A stretch of 53,291 bases of DNA, from positions 1 through 53,291 of the forward strand of contig CAYGRX010000001.1 in assembly GCA_964352365.1 (NCBI GenBank). Direction: 5' to 3'. Of this stretch, positions 3,350-50,511 are shown piece after piece. The notes beneath the pieces were generated by a model. That model ran no database searches. It was given only the letters and a program-made list of their open reading frames with translations, and was not told where the DNA came from. Within the stretch, counting starts at the first letter, position 1, and the number at the start of each line of letters is the position of its first letter. The DNA comes from an uncultured Rickettsiales bacterium. GTDB taxonomy: Bacteria; Pseudomonadota; Alphaproteobacteria; Rickettsiales; UBA8987. Position numbers and translations under genes: made by a program.

Positions 3350-4224
3350 TTTGTATGATAAATAATATATATATACCTCTCAATAGATCAGTAATAGGAA
3401 TTTCTGGTGAGGACTCCACAAAGCTTTTACAAGGTATAATTTCAAACGACATTGAAAAAGTTACTGAGAAAAAAGCAATTTATACTTTTCAGCTAACTCC
3501 ACAGGGTAAATATCTTTTTGATTTTTTTATTTCTCTAAAAGATGGTCAATATCTTATAGATATAGCGGAAAGACAAAGGGATGAGTTTTTAAAAAAGTTA
3601 AAAATGTATAAGCTTCGTTCAAAAGTTGAAATAATTGATTTATCAACCCAGATGGAGGTGGTAAGTTTAATTGGGGATAAAGTTTTTCAAAAAATTGGTG
3701 AGGATGAAGATTCGGGTTCAGTTCATGAATTTTGTAAAGGGCATGCGTTTCTAGATCCTAGATCTAACCTTATGTATGCCCGTGCAATAATTGGTCGAGA
3801 TAACAATTATCAGGCATTCCAATCTCAAGAGTTTATGCTAGCTGAAGTTAAGGAATATAATAAATTAAGAATTGAAAATAATATTCCTGAAGGTGAGTTT
3901 GACCTTGTTCAAGATAAGTCCTACCCATTACAATTTAAAATGATTAATCTTAATGCTGTGGATTTTAAAAAGGGGTGTTACGTGGGGCAGGAAGTTACAG
4001 CCAGAACCTATCATAGGGGAGTGGTACGAAAGCAAGTTTTTTCTCTCGCCTGTGATTCAAAAATTACCCATGAAGGAAATTTTGATATTATTATATCAGA
4101 AAAGAGGGTCGGGAATTTCCTATCAAAATTGGAGAATAATTGCCTTGCTTTGTTAGATGTTGATTTTGCAACTAGCAATAAATCATTTGAATTTGAAGGT
4201 CATAAGTATACTATACGCCCATGA
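3346..4224 (+). CDS. ygfZ: YgfZ-type folate-binding protein (Fe-S cluster repair / tRNA modification associated)
   Basis: Signature KGCYVGQE near the C-terminus and an aminomethyltransferase-like N-terminal half. The true start may be the ATG at 3355. Confidence 0.75.
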   Translation: MICMINNIYIPLNRSVIGISGEDSTKLLQGIISNDIEKVTEKKAIYTFQLTPQGKYLFDFFISLKDGQYLIDIAERQRDEFLKKLKMYKLRSKVEIIDLSTQMEVVSLIGDKVFQKIGEDEDSGSVHEFCKGHAFLDPRSNLMYARAIIGRDNNYQAFQSQEFMLAEVKEYNKLRIENNIPEGEFDLVQDKSYPLQFKMINLNAVDFKKGCYVGQEVTARTYHRGVVRKQVFSLACDSKITHEGNFDIIISEKRVGNFLSKLENNCLALLDVDFATSNKSFEFEGHKYTIRP

Positions 4225-5330
4225 AAAACATTAATGAAGCAAAGACTATAGTTGTAAAAATCGGCTCATCTTTATTAGCTGACAAAAAACGTAACTTAAG
4301 AAAAAAATGGATAGCCTCAGTAACTGAAGATATCGCAGAACTGGCAAAAACTGGCAAGGATATTGTTATAGTTTCATCAGGGGCGGTTGCGCTAGGTAGA
4401 AAAGTAATTTCGAAAAATAGGCAAAAGCTAAAAATTGAAGAAAAGCAAGCCGCTGCTGCCATAGGTCAACCACTCCTTATGACTGAATATCGCCGTGCCT
4501 TTGCTGAGTTTAAATATAAATGTGCAGAAATACTTATTACAATTTCTGATATTGAGAATAGAAGACGTTATTTGAATGCAAAAAACACAATTCAAAAGCT
4601 AATTGAGTACAATGTTATACCAATTGTTAATGAAAATGACACTGTTGCTACTAATGAACTTCGCTTTGGGGACAATGACCGCATATCAGCTTTAGTTGCT
4701 CAAATGATTCATGCAGATTTGCTAATAATACTTTCTGATATTGATGGTTTATATACAGATGATCCTAGTAAAAACCCCGATGCTAAATTTATTCCAGTAG
4801 TAACCGATATTGAGTCAGTAAGGGAGAGTGCGAAAGGTCCATCTTCAAGTGTTGGTAGTGGTGGTATGATCACCAAAATAGATGCTGCTGAAATCGCTGA
4901 TAATGCTGGTTGTTCAACGGTTATAACAAGAGGGAACGTTCAGCATCCTCTTAGGAAGCTATTTAAAGGTGGTATTCATACATTTTTTAAGTCAGGGGAT
5001 GATCCTATCTCAGCTAGAAAAAAATGGATACTTAACGCACCAATTTCTCATGGGGTTGTTATTGTTGATGATGGTTGTGAAAAAGCCTTAATAAACAAAA
5101 AAAGTCTACTTGCAGTTGGTATTACCAGCACTATTGGAGAGTATGGTAGAGGTGATGTAATTATTGTTAGAAACCAGCGCGGTGAAGATATAGCGCAAGG
5201 TATAACGGCATTCTCAAGTTTGGATGTTGAAAGGGTAAAAGGTAAACACTCCTCTGAAGTTGAGTCTATTTTAGGGTTCTCGGGTCGTGACGCAATTATA
5301 CATATTGATGACTTAGCTTTAATTAATTAG
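4221..5330 (+). CDS. proB: glutamate 5-kinase with C-terminal PUA domain
   Basis: VVKIGSSLL, VSSGAVALG, NENDTVATNELRFGDNDRISALVA, GSGGMITKI. ATGA overlap with the ygfZ stop. Confidence 0.9.
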   Translation: MKNINEAKTIVVKIGSSLLADKKRNLRKKWIASVTEDIAELAKTGKDIVIVSSGAVALGRKVISKNRQKLKIEEKQAAAAIGQPLLMTEYRRAFAEFKYKCAEILITISDIENRRRYLNAKNTIQKLIEYNVIPIVNENDTVATNELRFGDNDRISALVAQMIHADLLIILSDIDGLYTDDPSKNPDAKFIPVVTDIESVRESAKGPSSSVGSGGMITKIDAAEIADNAGCSTVITRGNVQHPLRKLFKGGIHTFFKSGDDPISARKKWILNAPISHGVVIVDDGCEKALINKKSLLAVGITSTIGEYGRGDVIIVRNQRGEDIAQGITAFSSLDVERVKGKHSSEVESILGFSGRDAIIHIDDLALIN

Positions 5331-41309: not shown

Positions 41310-41399
41310 GGATGAGTGGCAGAGCGGTTGAATGCACCAGTCTTGAAAACTGACGTACGTGCAAGCGTACCGGGGGTTCGAATCCCTCCTCATCCGCCA
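41310..41399 (+). tRNA. tRNA-Ser (UGA), class II with long variable arm
   Basis: GGATGAGTGGCAGAGCGGTTGAATGCACCAGTCTTGAAAACTG...GGGGGTTCGAATCCCTCCTCATCCGCCA. Confidence 0.9.
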
Positions 41400-41553
41400 T
41401 TTTATGGTTCACCGCAGTCCACTAAAGTCCACAAACCCCAGTTACAAAGCCAATCTTAAGTCCACTGAAGTATATTAACGTTCATTGACATCCTGACAAA
41501 TTGGGGGTATAAATGGGGGTGTAATTTTAACCCCCTTTGGAATAGACCCCCAA

Positions 41554-42732
41554 ATGAAGTTAACTGATAAAAAAATTAAGTCACTAAAGCCAAAAGAAAA
41601 ACAATATAAGGAATCTGACGGCAAAGGCTTATATTTACTAGTTCACCCTAACAATTCTAAATACTGGAAGCTTAAATATCGCATTAATGGCAAAGAGAAG
41701 ACTCTATCAATAGGTGTTTACCCTGATGTATCGCTTGCCGAAGCTAGAGATAAAACAAATGATGCTAAGAAAAAGCTAGCTGAAGGCATTGACCCCTCTC
41801 AAGAAAAACAACTTAAGAAACTAATTGCCCAAACTAATAGTGAAGATAGTTTTGAGGCTATAGCTCGAGAGTGGCATGATAATAAGAAGCATGAATGGAC
41901 TGAGCGTCATGCTGTATATGTAATTAGAAGGTTGGAAGCTGATATTTTTCCTAATCTAGGTTCTAGAGCGATTAAAGATATTACTGCTCCAGAGTTATTA
42001 GCAGTTCTTAGGCTTGTTGAGAAGCGTGGAGCTGTAGATATCGCAAAAAGGTTACTTCAAACTTCTGGTCAGATATTCAGATATGGAGTTTCAACGGGTA
42101 AAACTGATAGAGATATCACCCCAGACTTAAAAGGAGCATTAAAAACTCGCAAGAAAGATAATTATTCTCACCTTAAAGAAGATGAGTTGCCAGATTTCTT
42201 AAAAGCCTTGGAAAGTTATGATGGTGATTATCAAACAAAGCTAGGTTTTAAGTTGTTAATTTTAACTATGGTTAGAACAATTGAGTTAAGGGGTGCAAAG
42301 TGGTCAGAAATAAACTTTGAAGATAAAATCTGGAAAATTCCTGCTGATAGAATGAAAATGAGCCGTGAGCATTGGGTTCCATTAACTAAACAATCCTTGG
42401 AGATATTAGAGGAGTTGCAAAAAATTAACGGTGATTATGAGCATGTTTTTCCTAATCGCAATAAACCTAGAACTTATATAAGTAATAATACTCTATTATA
42501 TGCACTCTATAGGCTTGGTTATCATAGTAGGGCAACTGTTCATGGTTTTCGAGCTACAGCTTCTACAATTCTTAATGAAAAAGGATTTAATCGAGATTAT
42601 ATTGAAACTCAGCTAGCCCATGCTGAAAGTAACGGCTCAAGAGCAAGTTATAATCATGCTCAATATTTAGAGCCAAGAAGAGAAATGCTTCAATGGTGGG
42701 CTGATTTTATAGATGATAAAAGAGGTGAGTGA
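41554..42732 (+). CDS. tyrosine integrase, P4/CP4-57 type (DUF4102 N-terminal arm-binding domain)
   Basis: KLTDKKIKSLKPKEKQYKESDGKGLYLLVHPNNSKYWKLKYRINGKEKTLSIGVYP; catalytic HGFRATAST and the terminal Tyr region SYNHAQY. Confidence 0.9.
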   Translation: MKLTDKKIKSLKPKEKQYKESDGKGLYLLVHPNNSKYWKLKYRINGKEKTLSIGVYPDVSLAEARDKTNDAKKKLAEGIDPSQEKQLKKLIAQTNSEDSFEAIAREWHDNKKHEWTERHAVYVIRRLEADIFPNLGSRAIKDITAPELLAVLRLVEKRGAVDIAKRLLQTSGQIFRYGVSTGKTDRDITPDLKGALKTRKKDNYSHLKEDELPDFLKALESYDGDYQTKLGFKLLILTMVRTIELRGAKWSEINFEDKIWKIPADRMKMSREHWVPLTKQSLEILEELQKINGDYEHVFPNRNKPRTYISNNTLLYALYRLGYHSRATVHGFRATASTILNEKGFNRDYIETQLAHAESNGSRASYNHAQYLEPRREMLQWWADFIDDKRGE

Positions 42733-42741
42733 TAGCTACTT

Positions 42742-43629
42742 ATGGAAGAAAAAGATTTATATAGCGACGGTTTTGCAGAAGCTAATTTAGATTTCTGGAT
42801 AAGTGCGGCAAGGTTCAGTAAGGATGAGGCTGTAGCTTTAAGCCTAGGAAAAGAACCAAAAATTGTAAATAAGACTAGTTTAGAAATTTATTTAGATAAC
42901 TTTGGTAATGCTCCCTTTATAGATGAATATAGAAAAATAACGGAACTAATTGAGAGAGCTTTTTATAATTCTGAGGATTTGAGTGCTAAAGATTTTTTTG
43001 ATTGGTGCATGAAAAATAGAAACTTAAATCTAAAATTTGATTTTTTGGAGATATTTAAAGATAAGTCTTTATATCAAGGTGCTTCAAGCGAGTTAGTAAA
43101 TTATAATAATCGATTTGATATGAGAGATGATAGAAACAATGAAAATAAAATAGGAAATGAAAATTCATTACAAAATAATATTTATATTACTAGCCCTAAT
43201 AACTCTAGAGATAGCGAGGAGAAAGACTCTGTTGTAAAAAAAATGAAGGAAGAGATTGAATCCTTGAAAAAAGAATTGTCTGAAGAAAGCTCAAATAAAA
43301 AACCTGTATACGACGTAAAGAGAATATTGTCAGATTTAGAATATATAGCCAAAGATAAAAAGAAAAGGAGTCATAGGTCTGATGAAGGCAATGCCCTTAT
43401 CATAAAAACTTATATAGAGAGGATAGTTTCTAATGAAGCGTTTAAAGATGCTAAAAAAGAAAAAGAGAAATTGCAAAAACTAGCAAGAGAAAATGGAATT
43501 GAATATACAGGTGAAATTAAGCACATAGTAAAAGAATATGTTCATGATTTTTTATTAGATTTCAAAGTGCAGATTGCCAAAAACTTATCAAAAAAAATGA
43601 GTAATAAAGGCAGTAATAAACAACTCTAA
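42742..43629 (+). CDS. island hypothetical protein with K/E-rich coiled-coil C-terminal half
   Basis: Long ORF following int after a 9-nt gap. No family recognised. Confidence 0.5.
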   Translation: MEEKDLYSDGFAEANLDFWISAARFSKDEAVALSLGKEPKIVNKTSLEIYLDNFGNAPFIDEYRKITELIERAFYNSEDLSAKDFFDWCMKNRNLNLKFDFLEIFKDKSLYQGASSELVNYNNRFDMRDDRNNENKIGNENSLQNNIYITSPNNSRDSEEKDSVVKKMKEEIESLKKELSEESSNKKPVYDVKRILSDLEYIAKDKKKRSHRSDEGNALIIKTYIERIVSNEAFKDAKKEKEKLQKLARENGIEYTGEIKHIVKEYVHDFLLDFKVQIAKNLSKKMSNKGSNKQL

Positions 43630-44054: not shown

Positions 44055-45377
44055 ATGAATATCAAATATGATTACCAAAAATATAAAGAAATTTATGCAA
44101 GCGATTCTAAGCCCGACTTATTAAGTAAAATGAGATGTTTAAAGTTACCTGACAACTTCTTGTTAGGCATTCCAGTCTTTGATGCGGTTAGAGAATATTC
44201 AAAAGAGGTAGAAATAGACTTTGAAATTGGTTTTAATTTAGCGCTTGCACTTAGTAGCAGTTTATATGCTGATAAATTTAAAATTGAAGTAAAGGAAGGC
44301 CATGTTGAGTATTTAGTTTTATGGTCAATATCCTTTGTAAATAGTGGTGGTGGTAAAACAGCGATATATAACAAAATTATTAACCCATACAAAAATTATC
44401 AGAGACAAACTAAAAATAGAATTATAGCTAACAATACTACCGCAGAAGCTTTAATAGATTTACTTTCTAAAAATAAAGAAAAAATTATTATATCAACTGA
44501 TGAGGGAATGAATTTTCTATCCAACATAGTAGGGGGTAAATATAGTAGTGGCTCTGCTAATGACGCAGATATTAATAACTTTTTTAATGGAGGTTCAGTT
44601 GCAATTGATAGAAAGGGGCAAGAAGAAACAACCTTTATACAAGAGGGTTTGTTGATACTAGCTATAATGGTTCAAACTAGAGTATTTGATAAAATGAAGA
44701 ATAAGAATCACTATATGGATGGTGGCTTAGGTGCAAGAGTTTTAAATTATATAGGAGGCGAAAAAAAGTTAAAAAAATTTGACTATTATATACCAGATAA
44801 AAGTGTAGTTCAGAAATATGAACAGTTCGTTTTTGATAAATTATCAGAAGAGGTTGTTCAAAATGATTTAGGTGAAAGGGAATATAAATTAATTAAATTT
44901 TCATCCAAGGTTTCTGAGTTAGCTAAAAGTTATAGAAAGGAAATTAATAAACTATCTATAGATGAAAATGACTATGTTGCAGAATATTCTAGTAAGTTAG
45001 AGGTTAATTTTTATAGAATAATTGGTGTTTTGCACTGCCTTAAGAATTCTGGAAATGAACTTTCTGAAATTTGTGAAGATACTGTTGAGGAGGCAAAAAT
45101 CATTATCGATTATTACATAAACTCTTTTTATAATTTCATTTCACTGTCGGCACTTAATTATGAAGATGAAAGAGCAAAAAATCTCTTTAGTTTTTTAAGG
45201 GGTGGTTATCTTGAATTCTATTATAGTGAAATTTGGCAAAATAAGAAAGATCATAAGGGGTATTATAATAAGTCTGAAAAATTGAAAGAGATAATAAAGA
45301 TTTTAGAAGATAGGAAATATATAATAAGAGTGGATGCAAGACCTGAAAAGTATCGCATAAATTCAAACTTGGTTTAA
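44055..45377 (+). CDS. DUF3987-like (YfjI-like) island replication-associated protein, tentative
   Basis: Position after alpA as in P4-like elements; IIISTDEGMNFL acidic motif; no primase or helicase Walker motif seen. Confidence 0.45.
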   Translation: MNIKYDYQKYKEIYASDSKPDLLSKMRCLKLPDNFLLGIPVFDAVREYSKEVEIDFEIGFNLALALSSSLYADKFKIEVKEGHVEYLVLWSISFVNSGGGKTAIYNKIINPYKNYQRQTKNRIIANNTTAEALIDLLSKNKEKIIISTDEGMNFLSNIVGGKYSSGSANDADINNFFNGGSVAIDRKGQEETTFIQEGLLILAIMVQTRVFDKMKNKNHYMDGGLGARVLNYIGGEKKLKKFDYYIPDKSVVQKYEQFVFDKLSEEVVQNDLGEREYKLIKFSSKVSELAKSYRKEINKLSIDENDYVAEYSSKLEVNFYRIIGVLHCLKNSGNELSEICEDTVEEAKIIIDYYINSFYNFISLSALNYEDERAKNLFSFLRGGYLEFYYSEIWQNKKDHKGYYNKSEKLKEIIKILEDRKYIIRVDARPEKYRINSNLV

Positions 45378-45428
45378 ATTTACCCCTTTTACCCCTTTTC
45401 TCTTATGAGGGGGTTTAGGGGGTAAATT
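45377..45428. repeat. imperfect inverted repeat carrying the island GGGGGT motif (possible terminator)
   Basis: AATTTACCCCTTTTACCCC...GGGGGTTTAGGGGGTAAATT overlapping the final base of the DUF3987-like stop codon. Confidence 0.55.
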
Positions 45429-45667
45429 CCTGTAATAAAACATTTCTAGAATTGTTGGTATATTGATACAAAACCTCTACAACTTACTAAGTCTAATAAT
45501 ATCAGGACACTTCAGCAAAAAGAAAAGCTCTAAACCTATACTATAGCTACATTTACGGGTACAAGCCTCGTATAAAGCTAACAACTAATAAACCCTTGCC
45601 CCGCTTCGGAAAAGTTATGAATTAGGTTTGTATGAGGTTGTGAGGGGTTGAGTTTTGGTGATTAGGG

Positions 45668-46651
45668 TTATTTTTGTCTTTTAGGATTTTCATCTTTAGA
45701 GTTATATTCTGCTGCAAGCTTTTCAAAATAATTATCTTTAGATAATTCCGCCATATTAGAGCCCTCTCTTAAATACTCGTCCAAACCTTTTCTTGTGCTT
45801 GTATCGTGAGGCGCTTCTGTCAACTGATTGCCCCAGCTTGACATCTCGCTAAGAGCAACTCCTGTAGCCAGCTCTTTAAATTCGGGGTCATCACTTAAAT
45901 TCCTTATATTGCGCAGCTCTTCAGCTTCACTTGAGGTTAGAACGCCTATTCTTGCGAGAACCTCTATTCTACTAGCTTGACTCCCATCAAATACGGTGTT
46001 ACTTGGTACATTTTGTTCAGCAGGGTCATTTGACCCATCAATATAAATTATTTCCTCGATGAATCTTGAATCTGCAATAATATTACCGATTTCACTATAT
46101 CCTTCAACATCACTTAAAGTTCTTTCAATATCAGAGTTACTATAAGTAACAGTAAAGTCATTCCCATCTTTTTCATATTTTACTCTATAACCTGTTGAAT
46201 CTACATATGTAAACTTTTCAACATCAACCTCATCGTTCTGTCTTCGAGAAAATGTAGCTCTAGCCACTATTTCTCCATCAGCACTTTTTGGTATGTATTC
46301 TTTTACACCAGATTCCATTTCTTTGTGATTTAAATCTGCAACAGAATTATACTCATGTACACCCGAGTCAATTCCAGATGCAACCTTTTCAATCAGTGTA
46401 TTTAACTCATTTCGTTGCTGTTCATCAGAGATTATGCCTAAATGTTCAATTCTTAAAAGCCTATCATGGTAATCTACTACTGATTCTCCTTCTTGCCTCC
46501 GGGTAGTTTCTACAAACCCTTCATAGCTGGTACTATTATCACCTGGCATTTGCTGTAAAAGGTAGTGTTTTTGCCCCCTTTCAAAGAATTCTGATTGGTG
46601 AAAATTCAGGCTGTTAACTGATTTTTGTTTTTTATGAAACATCGCAAACAC
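45668..46651 (-). CDS. 327-aa acidic soluble protein, no recognisable family
   Basis: Long ORF with somewhat higher GC than the flanks, own upstream spacer of 171 nt. Confidence 0.5.
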   Translation of the reverse strand: MFAMFHKKQKSVNSLNFHQSEFFERGQKHYLLQQMPGDNSTSYEGFVETTRRQEGESVVDYHDRLLRIEHLGIISDEQQRNELNTLIEKVASGIDSGVHEYNSVADLNHKEMESGVKEYIPKSADGEIVARATFSRRQNDEVDVEKFTYVDSTGYRVKYEKDGNDFTVTYSNSDIERTLSDVEGYSEIGNIIADSRFIEEIIYIDGSNDPAEQNVPSNTVFDGSQASRIEVLARIGVLTSSEAEELRNIRNLSDDPEFKELATGVALSEMSSWGNQLTEAPHDTSTRKGLDEYLREGSNMAELSKDNYFEKLAAEYNSKDENPKRQK

Positions 46652-46822
46652 TACATTTATTTTTAATAATATAGTTCCGATTTTAACAGTTAAAGGTTAA
46701 TTTTTCGTTAACAAAGTTCAATTTTTTTCACTTTTTTATTTCGCTCTAAACTCTCAACCCTTCCGCCTGTTCCCGAAAGTTAAAACTTACCCCTCATTAA
46801 CGCTTACAGGGCTAATGTGAGG

Positions 46823-47242
46823 CTAATCTAGGTCAAAAGCGTCTAAAAGGTTTGGTTGGGTGAAGGCTAGACCTAGTTTTGATAGTAACTCTTCGTGATT
46901 ATCAAATGCATCAACTTCAATAATGGTAAGATTCTTATTTTGTCGTCTAATATATTTTAGTTTCTCGGTAATTTTCTCTTCGGTGTCTGCAACTAGGCTC
47001 AAGCTATCCAGTATAATAGTGTAGGGAGTATCTTTTTTAGTGATTAGATAATCTAACATCCAATCAAAGTTGGGGCGGTTATGTCTTTTGAGTTTATATT
47101 TATGGTCAAAGAAAGTTTTCTGAACAACTAATCCGTTACAAATTGCTGTCTCGAGGCAGGAAGTGTTTTGTCTTTCAAATACACTCCAGTAACTTCCGTG
47201 CATCTCCTTAGGCACGTTAATATAAATTACCGCCTGCCTCAA
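46823..47242 (-). CDS. 139-aa protein with degenerate serine-recombinase (resolvase) catalytic-domain-like layout, no HTH
   Basis: AVIYINVPKE (Pro at the nucleophile Ser position), RPNFDWMLDYL, IILDSLSLVAD, NLTIIE follow the resolvase N-domain order. Assignment is by eye. Confidence 0.4.
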   Translation of the reverse strand: MRQAVIYINVPKEMHGSYWSVFERQNTSCLETAICNGLVVQKTFFDHKYKLKRHNRPNFDWMLDYLITKKDTPYTIILDSLSLVADTEEKITEKLKYIRRQNKNLTIIEVDAFDNHEELLSKLGLAFTQPNLLDAFDLD

Positions 47243-47266
47243 ATATTCTCCTTAGCTAAATGTTAA

Positions 47267-47857
47267 CTATCTAATTTCTGCTTCAAAATATAAAGTTCCT
47301 GCCTTTCTATCAGCCCAACTAATTACATATTGAATATTTTGTGTGCCCATGTTCGTTTGAGCTATCGCATCACATACTCTACCAACAGAGTTACCACTTC
47401 TATCTTTTAGCAGTCCTCTATAGTTAGGTTTGATATTCTGAAGGTTACTAATTTTTGCAGCATTGCCTGAGAACGGAATATTAAATTGTATTCTTTTAAC
47501 ATTTTGAACCACATACTCATTATTGCATTCAGGTATTTCTTTGAAGGCTACGGGCTTGGATGCCTCCATTAAGTTTGGTAAAAGATGAAATGCTATTAGC
47601 GCAAATAAACTAACCCATGCCATCTTTTTAATTATGTAGCTTCTATATTCTGGGTAGGTTTTCTTTTTTCGAATATAAATTATTAATACAGCAGGTAGTA
47701 TTGCGAGGAAGGGAGCGAATATACAGGAGATTACAAATATAAAAGCTAGTATTTTATCAGCTTTATTAAGTTTACTGTCCTTCAGTATATTATATTTTGC
47801 TTTCTTAGGTTTTTTAGGTGGCAGGCTAGTTTCGTCATGTTTGTTATCTTCGGTCAT
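47267..47857 (-). CDS. 196-aa two-TM membrane protein with C-terminal soluble domain, unknown family
   Basis: Hydrophobic helices ILAFIFVISCIFAPFLAILPAVLIIYI and MAWVSLFALIAFHLLPNL; basic N-terminus. Confidence 0.5.
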   Translation of the reverse strand: MTEDNKHDETSLPPKKPKKAKYNILKDSKLNKADKILAFIFVISCIFAPFLAILPAVLIIYIRKKKTYPEYRSYIIKKMAWVSLFALIAFHLLPNLMEASKPVAFKEIPECNNEYVVQNVKRIQFNIPFSGNAAKISNLQNIKPNYRGLLKDRSGNSVGRVCDAIAQTNMGTQNIQYVISWADRKAGTLYFEAEIR

Positions 47858-48285
47858 TTTTTCAACTCCATTTTGTTATAAAAATAGACCACCAGTTAAG
47901 GTTAACTCAATTGGTGATCGGGGAGTTTACAAAATCCGTCTAATGAAAGATTCACAACAGTCTTTAAACGCAAGCGTTCTGAACATACACTGAAGTCTCC
48001 CCGACCAGAAGTCGAGAAGACAAGCATATTTGTTAACGATACAAGCTTGAAATTGCACCGCATTAGACTAAGAGGTTGTAAAGCCCCAGATTGGTTAAAA
48101 ACAAACCAACCCAAACACAGTGTAAAAAAATATACTAAACTTACAACAGAAAAGAATGAATTAAGGGGTTTATATGAGATATGTTTATAATCATAATCTT
48201 GTTAAGATATAAAAAACTATGTGATAACAACTTGTAAAAGCAGTTAGAAACTGTAATGTTGCAACCTCAAGTATAAGAGGTTTAT

Positions 48286-50301
48286 ATGAAGTTGAAGAGG
48301 CTCGCGGTCAAAAACTTTAGAGGTTTTAAAGATAGGGAAGAGATAGTAATAGATGATTTAACTGCTGTGATAGGCAAAAATGATGTTGGTAAATCAACCA
48401 TTTTGGAAGCCTTGGATATTTTTTTTGGTGAAAACCTAGTTAAAGCAGAGTTTGATGATTTGTGCATAAATTCTCAAGGTGAAAGTCAATTCTACATCGA
48501 GTGTTATTTTGAATGTAGCCCTGAAATGAATATTGTAGTCGATGACTCTGCTGTAACAACCTTGGGTGAAGAGTATTTAATACATTCTATACAAGGGGAG
48601 AGTTTTTTAGTTATTAAAAAAATATTTGAAACTAAAGACGGAAAAATTAAGAAACCAAAAATATCTTTCAAATCAGACCATCCAGTTCACTCTAAATTCA
48701 AGTCTAGCTTATTGTTGTTAAAAATAGAAAAATTAAAAGAAATATTAGAAAAAAATAACATTGGATGCGAAAATAAATCAGTTAAGAAAGAAATTAGAAA
48801 ATCAATATATAATCATTTTAAAAGTGACTATGAGATACAAACTATAGATATTGAAGCTGATAAAAAAGATTCGGAAGCTCTGAATATTTTTAATTTTTTA
48901 TCTAGTTATTTACCAATATATCAATTATTTAGAGCTGACAGAGAGGCTCGGGATACTGACGACCAAGTTCAAAATCCTCTCAGTCTATCTGTAAAGCAAG
49001 CGGTAGAAATATATAAAGAGAAGTTTGAAGATTTAAGTTCTTTAATAAGGACTCATACTGAGCAAGTTACTCAGGAAGTGATCGAGCAAATGAAAGAAAG
49101 TTTTCCAGAGATAATAGATGATAAAGAATTAAGACCAGAGTTAATAGAAAAGAAGTGGGAGGCTATGTTTAAGCCTACTATTAAGGATGAAAATGACTTG
49201 CCTATGAATAAAAGAGGGTCTGGATTTAGAAGATTGGTCTTGTTAAGCTTTTTACAAAACGAAGCTAAGAAAAAGAAACTTAAATCTGCTGGGGAAAGAA
49301 ATGTTATATATGCTCTTGAAGAGCCTGAAACTTTTCAACACCCAAGTAATCAGATAGAAATTTATAAAACTTTAGAAAAGTTGTCCCAAACTGATGACCA
49401 AGTAATAATTACCACTCACAACCCAGCTATTGCGCAGCTTTGTCCAGTTAATAGCATCAGGTATGTGGTTCGTGACTTGAATAACCTCGTTAAAGTTAAA
49501 AGCTCAAGCATAGGTGGTGGAAATGACGAGATAAAAAAAGAGATAGCTAATACACTGGGGGTACTTCCTAATCCATTAGATAATATTGATAACGTTAAGT
49601 TAATAATATGTGTAGAAGGTAGTTCTGACATTTTTGCTTTAAAACATTTTTCAAGATTACTGTTTGATGCCAAAAAAACTAATATTGATTTGAGTGATGG
49701 TGCTAAATATTTAATATTACCATATGCTGGTGATGAGCTTAAAAGTTGGGTTGAACAAGATTACTTATCGAGTTTAAATTTACCCAAGTTTTATCTTTTA
49801 GACTCAGATAAAAAGTCTGAAACTGATTTAATAGATACGGCAAAGAGAGATCATATAGATAAGCTAAACTCTTTGTCACACCATAAAGCTGTGAGTACCA
49901 GAAAAAGAGAGATAGAAAATTATCTTAACTGGCGAACCCTGAAGGGAATGGTTAATGGTGACTACAGCTTATTTAGAGATATTGAAAACAATTATGATTT
50001 TAATGATCTCACAGGGAAATCAGGGATACTAAAAACATTTAAGAATGATATATGCAATTCCGATGTGAGTCTTTTAAACTCAGAGCTTCAATCATCTATA
50101 AAGTCAGAGAAGTTAAGTGTCAAACGAACCACAAATAAATTTTTTATACCTCAAATGAATATAGATGAACTTTTGGAATCATGTAAGTATCAAAAATCAG
50201 GAGCAGAACATTATGAAATCGTTGAGTGGTTTAAAGCAATGGATTCTTTAATCAATGAGTTCGAAAACCAGCTAAATTTAAATAATAGAAGAACTGCTTA
50301 A
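48286..50301 (+). CDS. OLD-family ATP-dependent nuclease (ABC-type ATPase + TOPRIM) with extra C-terminal region
   Basis: MKLKRLAVKNFRGFKD, Walker A GKNDVGKST, NKRGSGFRRL, YALEEPETFQHP, ITTHNP; TOPRIM Glu in LIICVEGSSD and DxD in YLLDSDKK. Confidence 0.8.
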   Translation: MKLKRLAVKNFRGFKDREEIVIDDLTAVIGKNDVGKSTILEALDIFFGENLVKAEFDDLCINSQGESQFYIECYFECSPEMNIVVDDSAVTTLGEEYLIHSIQGESFLVIKKIFETKDGKIKKPKISFKSDHPVHSKFKSSLLLLKIEKLKEILEKNNIGCENKSVKKEIRKSIYNHFKSDYEIQTIDIEADKKDSEALNIFNFLSSYLPIYQLFRADREARDTDDQVQNPLSLSVKQAVEIYKEKFEDLSSLIRTHTEQVTQEVIEQMKESFPEIIDDKELRPELIEKKWEAMFKPTIKDENDLPMNKRGSGFRRLVLLSFLQNEAKKKKLKSAGERNVIYALEEPETFQHPSNQIEIYKTLEKLSQTDDQVIITTHNPAIAQLCPVNSIRYVVRDLNNLVKVKSSSIGGGNDEIKKEIANTLGVLPNPLDNIDNVKLIICVEGSSDIFALKHFSRLLFDAKKTNIDLSDGAKYLILPYAGDELKSWVEQDYLSSLNLPKFYLLDSDKKSETDLIDTAKRDHIDKLNSLSHHKAVSTRKREIENYLNWRTLKGMVNGDYSLFRDIENNYDFNDLTGKSGILKTFKNDICNSDVSLLNSELQSSIKSEKLSVKRTTNKFFIPQMNIDELLESCKYQKSGAEHYEIVEWFKAMDSLINEFENQLNLNNRRTA

Positions 50302-50497
50302 TTAACTCAATCGCCCCCTTCAAAAAAGCAAGTGACATGTACGGGCAAAAATGCTAAATTTTGTTATTATTAATTAGTGATATAGTGCTTTAATTTAGCT
50401 CCAAATAATTGTTGTGGGGGTCTAAATGGGGGTTTAAGTTAAATGACTTTAATAACTAATTGTTTATATTCAGTTGTTTATTTTGTTATTGTGGCTG

Positions 50498-50511
50498 TCT
50501 CCTCACCGCCA
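50498..50511 (+). repeat. candidate attR: imperfect copy of the tRNA-Ser 3' end
   Basis: TCTCCTCA-CCGCCA versus CCTCCTCATCCGCCA at 41385-41399. Confidence 0.3.

Follow-up and report, generated by a model that had tools for sequence, protein, structure and literature searches.

PICMI, the minimalist satellites of marine vibrios, carry between their primase gene and the att site a locus that serves as a defence hotspot; one of its former unknowns, up2 (UP2, PICMI115), turned out to be a new defence gene, and a DUF3987 protein is the "prim" marker of these elements (PMC10803314). Another described element of relevance here is sRNA-Xcc1, a Northern-verified small RNA (sRNA) of ~88 nt (PMC2996969), which immediately precedes the toxin gene symE in the most widespread integron cassette of Xanthomonas, stands before an open reading frame (ORF) for an ORF6N protein in APSE phages and was also found in a Xylella genomic island. 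In this study we analysed a contig of an uncultured Rickettsiales bacterium (GCA_964352365.1, CAYGRX010000001.1, positions 1 to 53,291; this whole stretch of 53,291 nt is called the window below), in which a small island at a tRNA-Ser gene carries two divergent cargo units: the gene of an OLD-family nuclease and three genes of the opposite strand, named a, b and c. A structured RNA of ~200 nt lies between them, and its features argue for a new, extended relative of the sRNA-Xcc1 family leading a mosaic accessory operon. The parts of the locus on which this reading depends are as follows.

47911..48112, minus strand: structured RNA of ~200 nt with a 5' hairpin, a long closing stem and three hairpins
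47911..48006, minus strand: the RNA's 3' domain, in which the outer helix of sRNA-Xcc1 type, GGUCGGGGAG/CUCCCCGAUC, excludes part of the long fold
48119..48146, minus strand: putative sigma-70-type promoter of the RNA, TTGTAA-16-TACACT (8/12), recognized by eye, with the start at the first hairpin
47887..47919, minus strand: terminator-like hairpin with UAUUUUUAU behind it, shortly before the Shine-Dalgarno (SD) sequence of a; its 5' arm is the invariant tail GAUCACCA
47267-47857, minus strand: gene a, 196 aa, two transmembrane (TM) segments (ORF and hydropathy)
46823-47242, minus strand: gene b, 139 aa, TTG start, ORF resembling a resolvase catalytic domain
45668-46651, minus strand: gene c, ORF of 327 aa, acidic, GVG/ATG start; the database entry begins at the 4th codon (324 aa)
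48164..50301, plus strand: gene of an ATPase-TOPRIM nuclease of the OLD family, class 1-like, together with its own upstream region (ORF 48286-50301; AAA_15, PADLOC)

The RNA occupies most of the interval between a and OLD and is oriented as a-b-c. The first-pass annotation had described this interval as a ~430-nt spacer shared by the two genes; the distance was right (428 nt were measured from the start of a to the start of OLD), but most of it is conserved structured RNA and not an ordinary spacer. Two further copies were found, one in L001 (1576-1776, plus strand), a metagenome contig with a sister island, and one in L007 (6073-6252, minus strand), an island at tRNA-Gln in an alphaproteobacterial metagenome-assembled genome, the integrase of which is 57% identical to that of the window. 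Common to the window and L001 are the integrase (82% nt identity), the attR arm (87%), gene b (76% nt) and the non-coding block (87% overall), and beyond these four parts the two islands have essentially nothing in common. The RNA core of the block is ~97% identical over ~200 nt, as compared with synonymous sites of the flanking genes, which are near saturation (pS ~0.6), and the block is the most conserved part of the island. A small protein gene was considered as the source of this conservation and rejected: a 1-nt indel changes the reading frame of its only ORF between the window and L001, and the block is therefore not coding.

On the strand of a-b-c the RNA folds with -96.3 kcal/mol (z -7.5 relative to shuffles), versus -69.1 kcal/mol (z -4.1) on the opposite strand. 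The few differences between the window and L001 within the RNA fall into loops or keep the pairing, and one long-range helix of 8 bp contains three double changes (GUCUAAUG/CAUUAGAC versus GACAUAUG/CAUAUGUC). The copy in L007, first reached through a weak nhmmer match, shares both the architecture and the strand asymmetry when folded alone. A covariance model built from the window and L001 found it at full length with 40.6 bits (E~1e-8) and found nothing else in 1.34 Mb; the model built from all three sequences gave no further members. Aligned with one another, the three sequences have 98% of cells paired, and compensatory double changes were registered at 22 of the 70 pairs, spread over six helices. 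Slid controls gave 2-4 such pairs, shuffles 7.4 +/- 2.2, and none of the 500 shuffles reached 22. We regard the ~200-nt RNA, as it emerges from these comparisons, as real. By exact-string scans neither a 36-mer nor a 17-base conserved pattern of the RNA was detected in viral contigs, and a 19-mer gave five chance matches of 19-28 nt in metagenomes. The G-rich GGGGGTAAAT was also tried as a dispersed binding site and discarded, as it is not enriched.

The relation to sRNA-Xcc1 comes primarily from L007, where the 3' 88 nt of the RNA align with the full Rfam model RF02221 (positions 1-87) with 45.7 bits (gathering score 53) and E values from 2e-5 to 4e-7. The outer helix of this model, in which GGUCGGG... 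pairs with ...CCCGAUC, is available in all three copies. It corresponds to columns 110-119 with 191-200 of the alignment, which are 100% paired in the 3 sequences, with 2 compensatory changes at both variable positions, and it coincides with the helix of the Rfam alignment of L007. In the long fold GGUCGGGG pairs with the upstream CUCGAC instead of entering the outer helix, its alternative partner being CCCCGAUC, and the two conformations are therefore mutually exclusive.

Signals of transcription are arranged around the RNA in a way that suggests a leader. Promoter-like sites found by a scan in L001 (1541-1568) and L007 (6286-6259) end 7-8 nt before the first hairpin (P1), and the site of the window is weaker. 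On the other side, the terminator-like hairpin at 47887..47919, a putative attenuator, has 13-14 bp followed by a U tract (-14.9 kcal/mol, z -3.0 in the window; -19.1 kcal/mol, z -4.1 in L001), and in both islands the invariant tail of the RNA, GAUCACCAA, forms its 5' arm. In 3 of 3 islands the product of the first gene behind the RNA is a membrane or probably secreted protein, each time a different one: a with its 2 TM segments in the window, a 3-TM protein in L001 and a protein of ~110 aa with a signal-peptide-like N-terminus (by eye) in L007, where a protein with a TM segment and a zinc ribbon comes next as the other of two small genes. We infer that the RNA is transcribed from the promoter just upstream of its first hairpin as the 5' leader of a-b-c and acts in cis as an attenuator or switch between the two mutually exclusive folds. 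In one of them the tail would be free, the terminator-like hairpin would form and transcription would end before a; in the other the sRNA-Xcc1-type outer helix would take part of the 5' arm of the terminator, permitting read-through into a-b-c. In addition, an sRNA produced by processing or termination may act in trans. By analogy with sRNA-Xcc1 upstream of symE, such a leader might keep a potentially harmful envelope protein silent until a signal comes, and the envelope proteins in the first position would most likely be interchangeable exclusion or abortive-infection effectors or toxins.

The same arrangement can be read as a type I-like toxin-antitoxin or addiction system, in which the RNA or an sRNA derived from it represses the membrane toxin a and stabilises the island, with b and c as passengers. 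The toxin gene behind relatives of sRNA-Xcc1 in the commonest Xanthomonas integron cassette, the recurrence of a membrane or probably secreted protein behind the RNA and the much higher conservation of the RNA than of the genes all agree with it. However, a, with 196 aa and a soluble domain, is far larger than type I toxins usually are, the first gene of L007 looks by eye like that of a protein with a signal peptide and not like that of a pore-former, and there is no antisense arrangement; such a system therefore seems unlikely to us.

Gene b, the only protein gene of the operon which is shared with L001, encodes a protein that matches the Pfam family Resolvase (PF00239) over residues 5-117 with E=9.5e-5 and 23.0 bits (gathering score 23.3). 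Its ortholog in L001 (2478-2897; 77% aa and 76% nt identity) matches the same family with E=3.8e-6. In place of Y-x-R-V-S both orthologs have an identical Y-I-N-V-P motif (Asn9, Pro11), in which the nucleophilic serine (Ser10 in gamma-delta) is gone, and residues 57-98 of b, where Arg68 and Arg71 (D-R-L-G-R) are expected, contain no arginine at all, the region reading L-D-S-L-S-L-V-A-D. The protein stops at residue 139 and has neither a helix-turn-helix (HTH) or large C-terminal domain nor any further Pfam domain. All this agrees with the first-pass annotation, which had described a resolvase-like protein of 139 aa with Pro for the catalytic Ser and no DNA-binding domain. As compared with the small serine recombinases (PF00239; gamma-delta resolvase, Hin, Gin), b has the same domain by profile and the same predicted order of strands and helices, and it keeps the "RPxF/L..ll" and "D" positions (R56-P57, D46, D79), but it is devoid of the Ser nucleophile (Pro11), of equivalents of Arg8, Arg68 and Arg71 and of the E-helix/HTH part, being only 139 aa long. 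The order β-α-β-α-β-α-β-α was taken from a structural model with a predicted local distance difference test (pLDDT) of only 46. Foldseek with this model gave nothing below E=0.03 and only generic alpha/beta folds, and a sequence search of the PDB with the profile of b gave nothing relevant. The fold search is uninformative because of the low pLDDT, and the resolvase assignment therefore rests on sequence profiles; an hhalign comparison with four resolvases was weak (E=0.049) but in the same register. Between the window and L001 the dN/dS of b is 0.125 at a dS of 1.25 (for comparison, 0.10 for the integrase). The product of b is accordingly best described, at the level of prediction, as a catalytically dead resolvase fold under purifying selection, which should be unable to catalyse recombination by the known mechanism. 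Since it has neither the known recombination chemistry nor a DNA-binding domain, it would be a non-catalytic partner or regulator; such a protein is a further, minor curiosity of the locus.

Preservation of b and the block together with int and the attR arm, while alpA (~35% identical between islands) and the replication gene were swapped, suggests a core role, and both might belong to the life cycle of a satellite which interferes with a helper phage or exploits it. In this case b would serve as a decoy for the serine recombinase of the helper or for some other partner, and the block would function as a DNA site, for instance pac/cos, an origin or an operator of AlpA or Int. Packaging sites of satellites are under strong constraint at the nucleotide level, and the covarying 8-mers could be inverted operators tracking a changed DNA-binding protein. 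The pattern of substitutions speaks against a DNA site, however: the G-U pairs and single-sided changes fit a minus-strand RNA only, the fold is asymmetric between the strands both in the window and in L007, and covariation extends across six helices and not over one pair of sites. Moreover, the sRNA-Xcc1 family is Northern-verified as RNA, L007 retains the block without b, and neither b nor two strings of the RNA block were found in the viral collection (IMG/VR contigs). We consider a role in the satellite life cycle quite unlikely and prefer the interpretation of the block as an RNA leader.

The genes behind this leader were as a whole described correctly by the first-pass annotation: the three minus-strand ORFs have the sizes and spacings it gave (24 nt between a and b, 171 nt between b and c), a has two TM helices and a soluble C-terminal domain, and c is acidic. 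By hydropathy the TM segments of a lie at residues ~30-64 and 75-97 and are followed by a domain of ~100 aa, the pI of the protein being 9.7; b and c have no TM segments, and the pI of c is 4.7. ORFs of 196-327 codons are unlikely to arise by chance at 33% G+C, b is under purifying selection, and the three ORFs are real. Genes a and b, separated by 24 nt, are probably co-transcribed. All three had been called family-less, which is correct for a and c (no family in Pfam, PHROG, PADLOC and NCBIfam) and not strictly so for b in view of its PF00239 match. No named defence system had been recognized in them either, and in PADLOC-DB v2 indeed 0 families match a, b or c at E<=1. In 5.8 billion clusters representing ~15 billion proteins, a and c are singletons with self matches only, and b has a single ortholog, carried by the overlapping metagenome contigs L001 and L002; scans of metagenome and viral contigs gave no other relatives of b.

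An exhaustive HMMER search with c among 1.84 billion representatives returned two proteins. One of them, P0005, is a repeat-rich protein of low complexity and was rejected as spurious. The other, P0006, is a stand-alone protein of 112 aa (L088, 971-1309) with 38% identity to residues 227-314 of c, that is, to its C-terminal ~90 residues; its gene adjoins a GDPD gene on a contig of higher G+C with housekeeping genes, in an unrelated chromosomal context. This suggests that the C-terminal ~90 residues of c may form an independent small domain. The AlphaFold2 model of c (pLDDT 42) was too poor to use. A promoter-like site of its own lies at 46693-46666, and c may be an independent accessory gene transcribed from it.

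Anchored on the integrase, a scan across 185,579 species representatives yielded 80 loci; a, b, c and OLD are absent from all 80, and the RNA is present in L007 only, which has none of these four genes. The sister island L001 has an unrelated 3-TM protein, not homologous to a, in the a position, and unrelated acidic repeat proteins with an ORF of 97 aa in the c position, and its alpA and replication gene differ from those of the window as well. The breakpoints of the a slot are sharp: homology covers the SD sequence and ATG of a, ends there and restarts 5 nt before b. Only the RNA with this SD/ATG and b are thus common to the accessory regions of both islands, the body of a and the c segment being replaced, which argues against a conserved three-gene unit and for a mosaic accessory operon of swappable cargo in a-b-c. 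The same region contains a ~90-nt repeat in two copies:

46735..46822, minus strand: repeat copy E1 of the ~90-nt element, directly past the stop codon of b
45583..45667, minus strand: repeat copy E2 of the ~90-nt element, directly past the stop codon of c, matching the repeat of L001

In L001 the repeat is located at 2895-2990 and 4289-4385 (plus strand), where the stretches 2906-2971 and 4297-4375 match E2; an alignment covers all four copies. Since the direct repeats follow the stop codon of b and the c segment, the c slot is bracketed in both islands, and the repeat may be a recombination anchor or cassette boundary. It has no other copy in the window and no significant RNA fold, and was for these reasons rejected as an RNA structure or as a genome-wide repetitive extragenic palindromic (REP) element; an integron attC was ruled out by the lack of IntI and, by eye, of core-site motifs.

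The related islands have several further peculiarities. The JGI contig L002 differs from L001 by nothing but an 86-nt deletion (L001 1882-1967), which splits the membrane-protein gene of the a slot into two ORFs; either a knockout that arose in nature or an artefact of assembly could account for it. In the c slot of L001 (3094-3997) one or more acidic proteins contain two internal tandem duplications with units of 172 and 116 nt (76-84% identity), and this ORF is broken by a run of N in the assembly. Within the L007 island there is a second tyrosine recombinase (4195-5310). Among the slot occupants of L001 and L007 behind the RNA, PADLOC recognized nothing except a marginal HEase match (E=0.006) of the TM/zinc-ribbon protein of L007.

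The first-pass annotation had proposed the trio, alone or with OLD, as a unit, that is, as one undescribed anti-phage system composed of a membrane effector, a dead-recombinase adaptor, an unknown sensor and possibly the nuclease beside them. The position in a satellite-like hotspot, where unknowns such as UP2 of PICMI115 proved to be defence genes (PMC10803314), makes this idea attractive, as do the mismatch with all known systems, the probable co-transcription of a and b and the ORF-for-ORF swap of a between conserved flanks, a turnover of the type seen in phage-host conflict. Yet no conserved co-occurrence was found, which essentially contradicts the proposal: a and c are singletons, the sole b-bearing relative has different genes on both sides of b and no OLD, the third RNA-bearing island has none of a, b and c, and c is set apart by its promoter-like site and a 171-nt spacer with a repeat element. 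One system including the trio and possibly OLD is in our opinion improbable, and so is a-b-c as a single three-gene system; that at least one of a, b and c has an anti-phage role is possible, though well below an even chance. Orphan genes in a defence hotspot are easily mistaken for a new multi-gene system, and here one sister island was enough to reveal their separate inheritance and the independent insertion of OLD. Least probable is that function resides solely in b and the RNA, with a and c as junk (selfish or decaying ORFs, functionless morons), as might be suspected from the lack of homologs of a and c and from the split a-slot gene of L002, because a and c are both long intact ORFs in an AT-rich genome, a retains a conserved SD/ATG and a coherent TM topology, and the C-terminal domain of c has a conserved relative.

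The divergent unit on the other side of the RNA consists of OLD. The protein of 671 aa matches AAA_15 (1e-61) and the PADLOC models Old/GajA/AriA, and its best solved structure is 6P74, a class 1 OLD (E=3e-12). The PADLOC models Old and GajA align through residues ~300-547, and 6P74 aligns into the VEG..D start of TOPRIM. As expected of class 1, ATPase and TOPRIM are combined in one protein, and no gene for a helicase (UvrD-like in class 2), a reverse transcriptase (class 3) or a separate DUF4435 protein (PARIS) is present from 48164 to attR. Like class 1 OLD proteins (P2 Old; Thermus scotoductus OLD, 6P74), it joins an ABC-type ATPase (AAA_15) at the N-terminus and a TOPRIM region at the C-terminus in one polypeptide chain, encoded by a stand-alone gene on a phage-related element, but it is merely ~25-30% similar to them in the aligned stretches, and its activity is predicted. 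Homology to L001 ends at 48163 and restarts at 50299, at the stop codon of OLD, with ~95 nt in L001 instead. OLD is unlinked to the trio because it is missing from the sister island, and it is a separate single-gene insertion relative to L001, belonging to the hotspot and not to the trio. In this slot before attR, divergent from the RNA, the window has OLD, L001 has nothing and L007 (6362-11163, plus strand) has two genes, one for a Mrr_cat-NACHT protein of 823 aa and one for a PifA homolog of 768 aa (PADLOC 1e-220), a content which marks the slot as a defence hotspot. The first-pass annotation had placed the trio and its neighbour in such a cargo or defence slot, and the PICMI layout (PMC10803314) together with PifA and Mrr-NACHT in the slot of L007 bears this out. 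A retron formed by OLD and the RNA was also considered and rejected: the island has no reverse transcriptase, and the RNA is present in L001 without OLD. A 16-nt direct repeat TAAG(G/A)GGTTTATATGA was noticed at 48162-48177 and 48274-48289; the first copy coincides precisely with the left junction of the OLD insertion, ahead of a mini-ORF of 12 codons, and the second supplies OLD with its SD and ATG. The repeat may have been left by cargo exchange at the hotspot.

Several observations have to be set against the reading of the RNA as an extended sRNA-Xcc1 relative which leads and gates the operon. There are three sequences of the RNA only, two of them near-identical, and the pair counts are inflated, because the alignment was fitted to the model structure, which was itself derived from one of its members. 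Identity of the RNA between the window and L001 could partly originate from recent recombination instead of selection. The window copy has no match in Rfam, RF02221 included, even at E<=10, the L001 copy likewise gives none with RF02221 at this limit, and that of L007 remains below the gathering score. The outer helix taken alone is not significant, being matched by 66 of 500 shuffles. L007 has no terminator-like hairpin, and attenuation therefore cannot be the general mechanism. Finally, the statement that b is conserved and a and c are variable depends on one comparison, since b has a single sister island. With all this taken into account, we give somewhat better than even credence to the anatomical and regulatory picture as a whole, namely a PICMI-like island with two divergent independent cargo units parted by an RNA which leads a-b-c. 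A step further, in which the bistable RNA would be a sensor or gate for phage infection or another signal and would open read-through into interchangeable envelope effectors, with b as their conserved non-catalytic partner, is improbable at present. If true, it would mean a class of RNA-gated exclusion or abortive-infection modules on minimalist satellites and would give the widespread sRNA-Xcc1 family a mechanism. Even without it, a long, constrained and covarying RNA appears to organise the cargo region across a family of small satellite-like islands, lying between a hotspot of defence genes and a slot that takes genes for different membrane or probably secreted proteins. Should the RNA gate harmful cargo, this would explain the position of sRNA-Xcc1 relatives before toxins and unknown ORFs of integrons, prophages and islands, and the locus would offer a small clonable system for testing.

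The remaining parts of the island, where ARAGORN, Pfam and PADLOC confirmed the tRNA-Ser, int, alpA, DUF3987 and OLD assignments of the first-pass annotation, are listed below.

41310..41399, plus strand: tRNA-Ser(UGA) (ARAGORN and Rfam tRNA); its 3' end is the attL core
41554..42732, plus strand: P4-type tyrosine integrase with Arm-DNA-bind_3, Phage_int_M and Phage_integrase domains
42742..43629, plus strand: integrase-contiguous gene of 295 aa without family, beginning 10 nt past the int stop codon
43760..43990, plus strand: AlpA-family regulator/excisionase (PF05930, E=2.9e-5)
44055..45377, plus strand: DUF3987 primase/helicase-like replication protein (PF13148, 2.4e-39; PHROG DNA helicase/primase)
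50299..50511, plus strand: conserved attR arm, 87% identical to L001 1428-1223, containing GGGGGTCTAAATGGGGGT (50416-50433)

The 3' end of the tRNA gene, ...ctcctcatccgcca, is repeated as ctcctcaccgcca at 50499-50511 (the attR core), and an 18-nt motif, GGGGGTnTAAATGGGGGT, has its sole copies at 41503-41520, beside attL, and at 50416-50433, beside attR, with 0.01 expected by chance. From this repeat and the end-specific motif it follows that the island is ~9.1 kb long. Copies of the motif are probably arm-type binding sites of the integrase or binding sites of AlpA. A 19-nt inverted repeat, AATTTACCCCTTTTACCCC/GGGGTTTAGGGGGTAAATT, at 45377-45428, directly past the DUF3987 stop codon and between the convergent DUF3987 gene and c, is likely a bidirectional terminator. 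The 295-aa protein has no family in Pfam, PHROG, PADLOC or NCBIfam. Among the island proteins Pfam and PHROG found none of the P4 core genes psu, delta, sid, epsilon and primase-domain alpha, and recognized int, alpA and DUF3987 only.

Among described mobile elements PICMI come closest. With the PICMI model of SatelliteFinder as a reference, the marker set of integrase, AlpA and DUF3987/DUF5906 primase was found in a small island; the mandatory integration next to fis was not, since the island sits at the 3' end of tRNA-Ser. Because the published model demands integration at fis, the island, as far as its gene content allows us to classify it, is PICMI-like and not a member of PICMI. It has the same small size (9.1 kb) and the same order of int, contiguous gene, alpA, DUF3987 primase, accessory locus and att, and the 295-aa gene occupies the position of the PICMI iolg/icg (the icg concept is from PMC10803314). 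Its accessory locus likewise mixes defence genes (OLD in the window, PifA and Mrr-NACHT in L007) with unknown genes. PICMI, however, integrate at fis and are hosted by Vibrio, whereas the window island is found at tRNA-Ser and that of L007 at tRNA-Gln, and the host of the former has an AT-rich non-Vibrio genome; a structured RNA organising the accessory locus, present here, was not described for PICMI. A looser likeness in the position of the cargo exists with the hotspots of P4-like satellites (PMC9122126).

As a satellite-borne leader, the RNA resembles the immunity leader of P4, which is a functional analogy only. In the CI RNA leader of P4 complementary internal segments (seqA/seqC) covary between elements and control read-through downstream; that leader stands before the replication operon and not before a cargo operon. 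The likeness to sRNA-Xcc1 (RF02221) includes structure as well. Members of this family were found on integron cassettes, transposons, plasmids, prophages and genomic islands, and the RNA of the window is likewise borne by a mobile element. A variable and often toxic ORF follows them directly in the same orientation, as a variable ORF follows the RNA in all three islands. All three copies have the helix GGyCGGGG.../...CCCCGryC round internal hairpins and behind it an ACC tail. The part similar to sRNA-Xcc1 constitutes, however, only the 3' half of the window-type RNA, the 5' half of which pairs with it in the alternative, covariation-supported fold.

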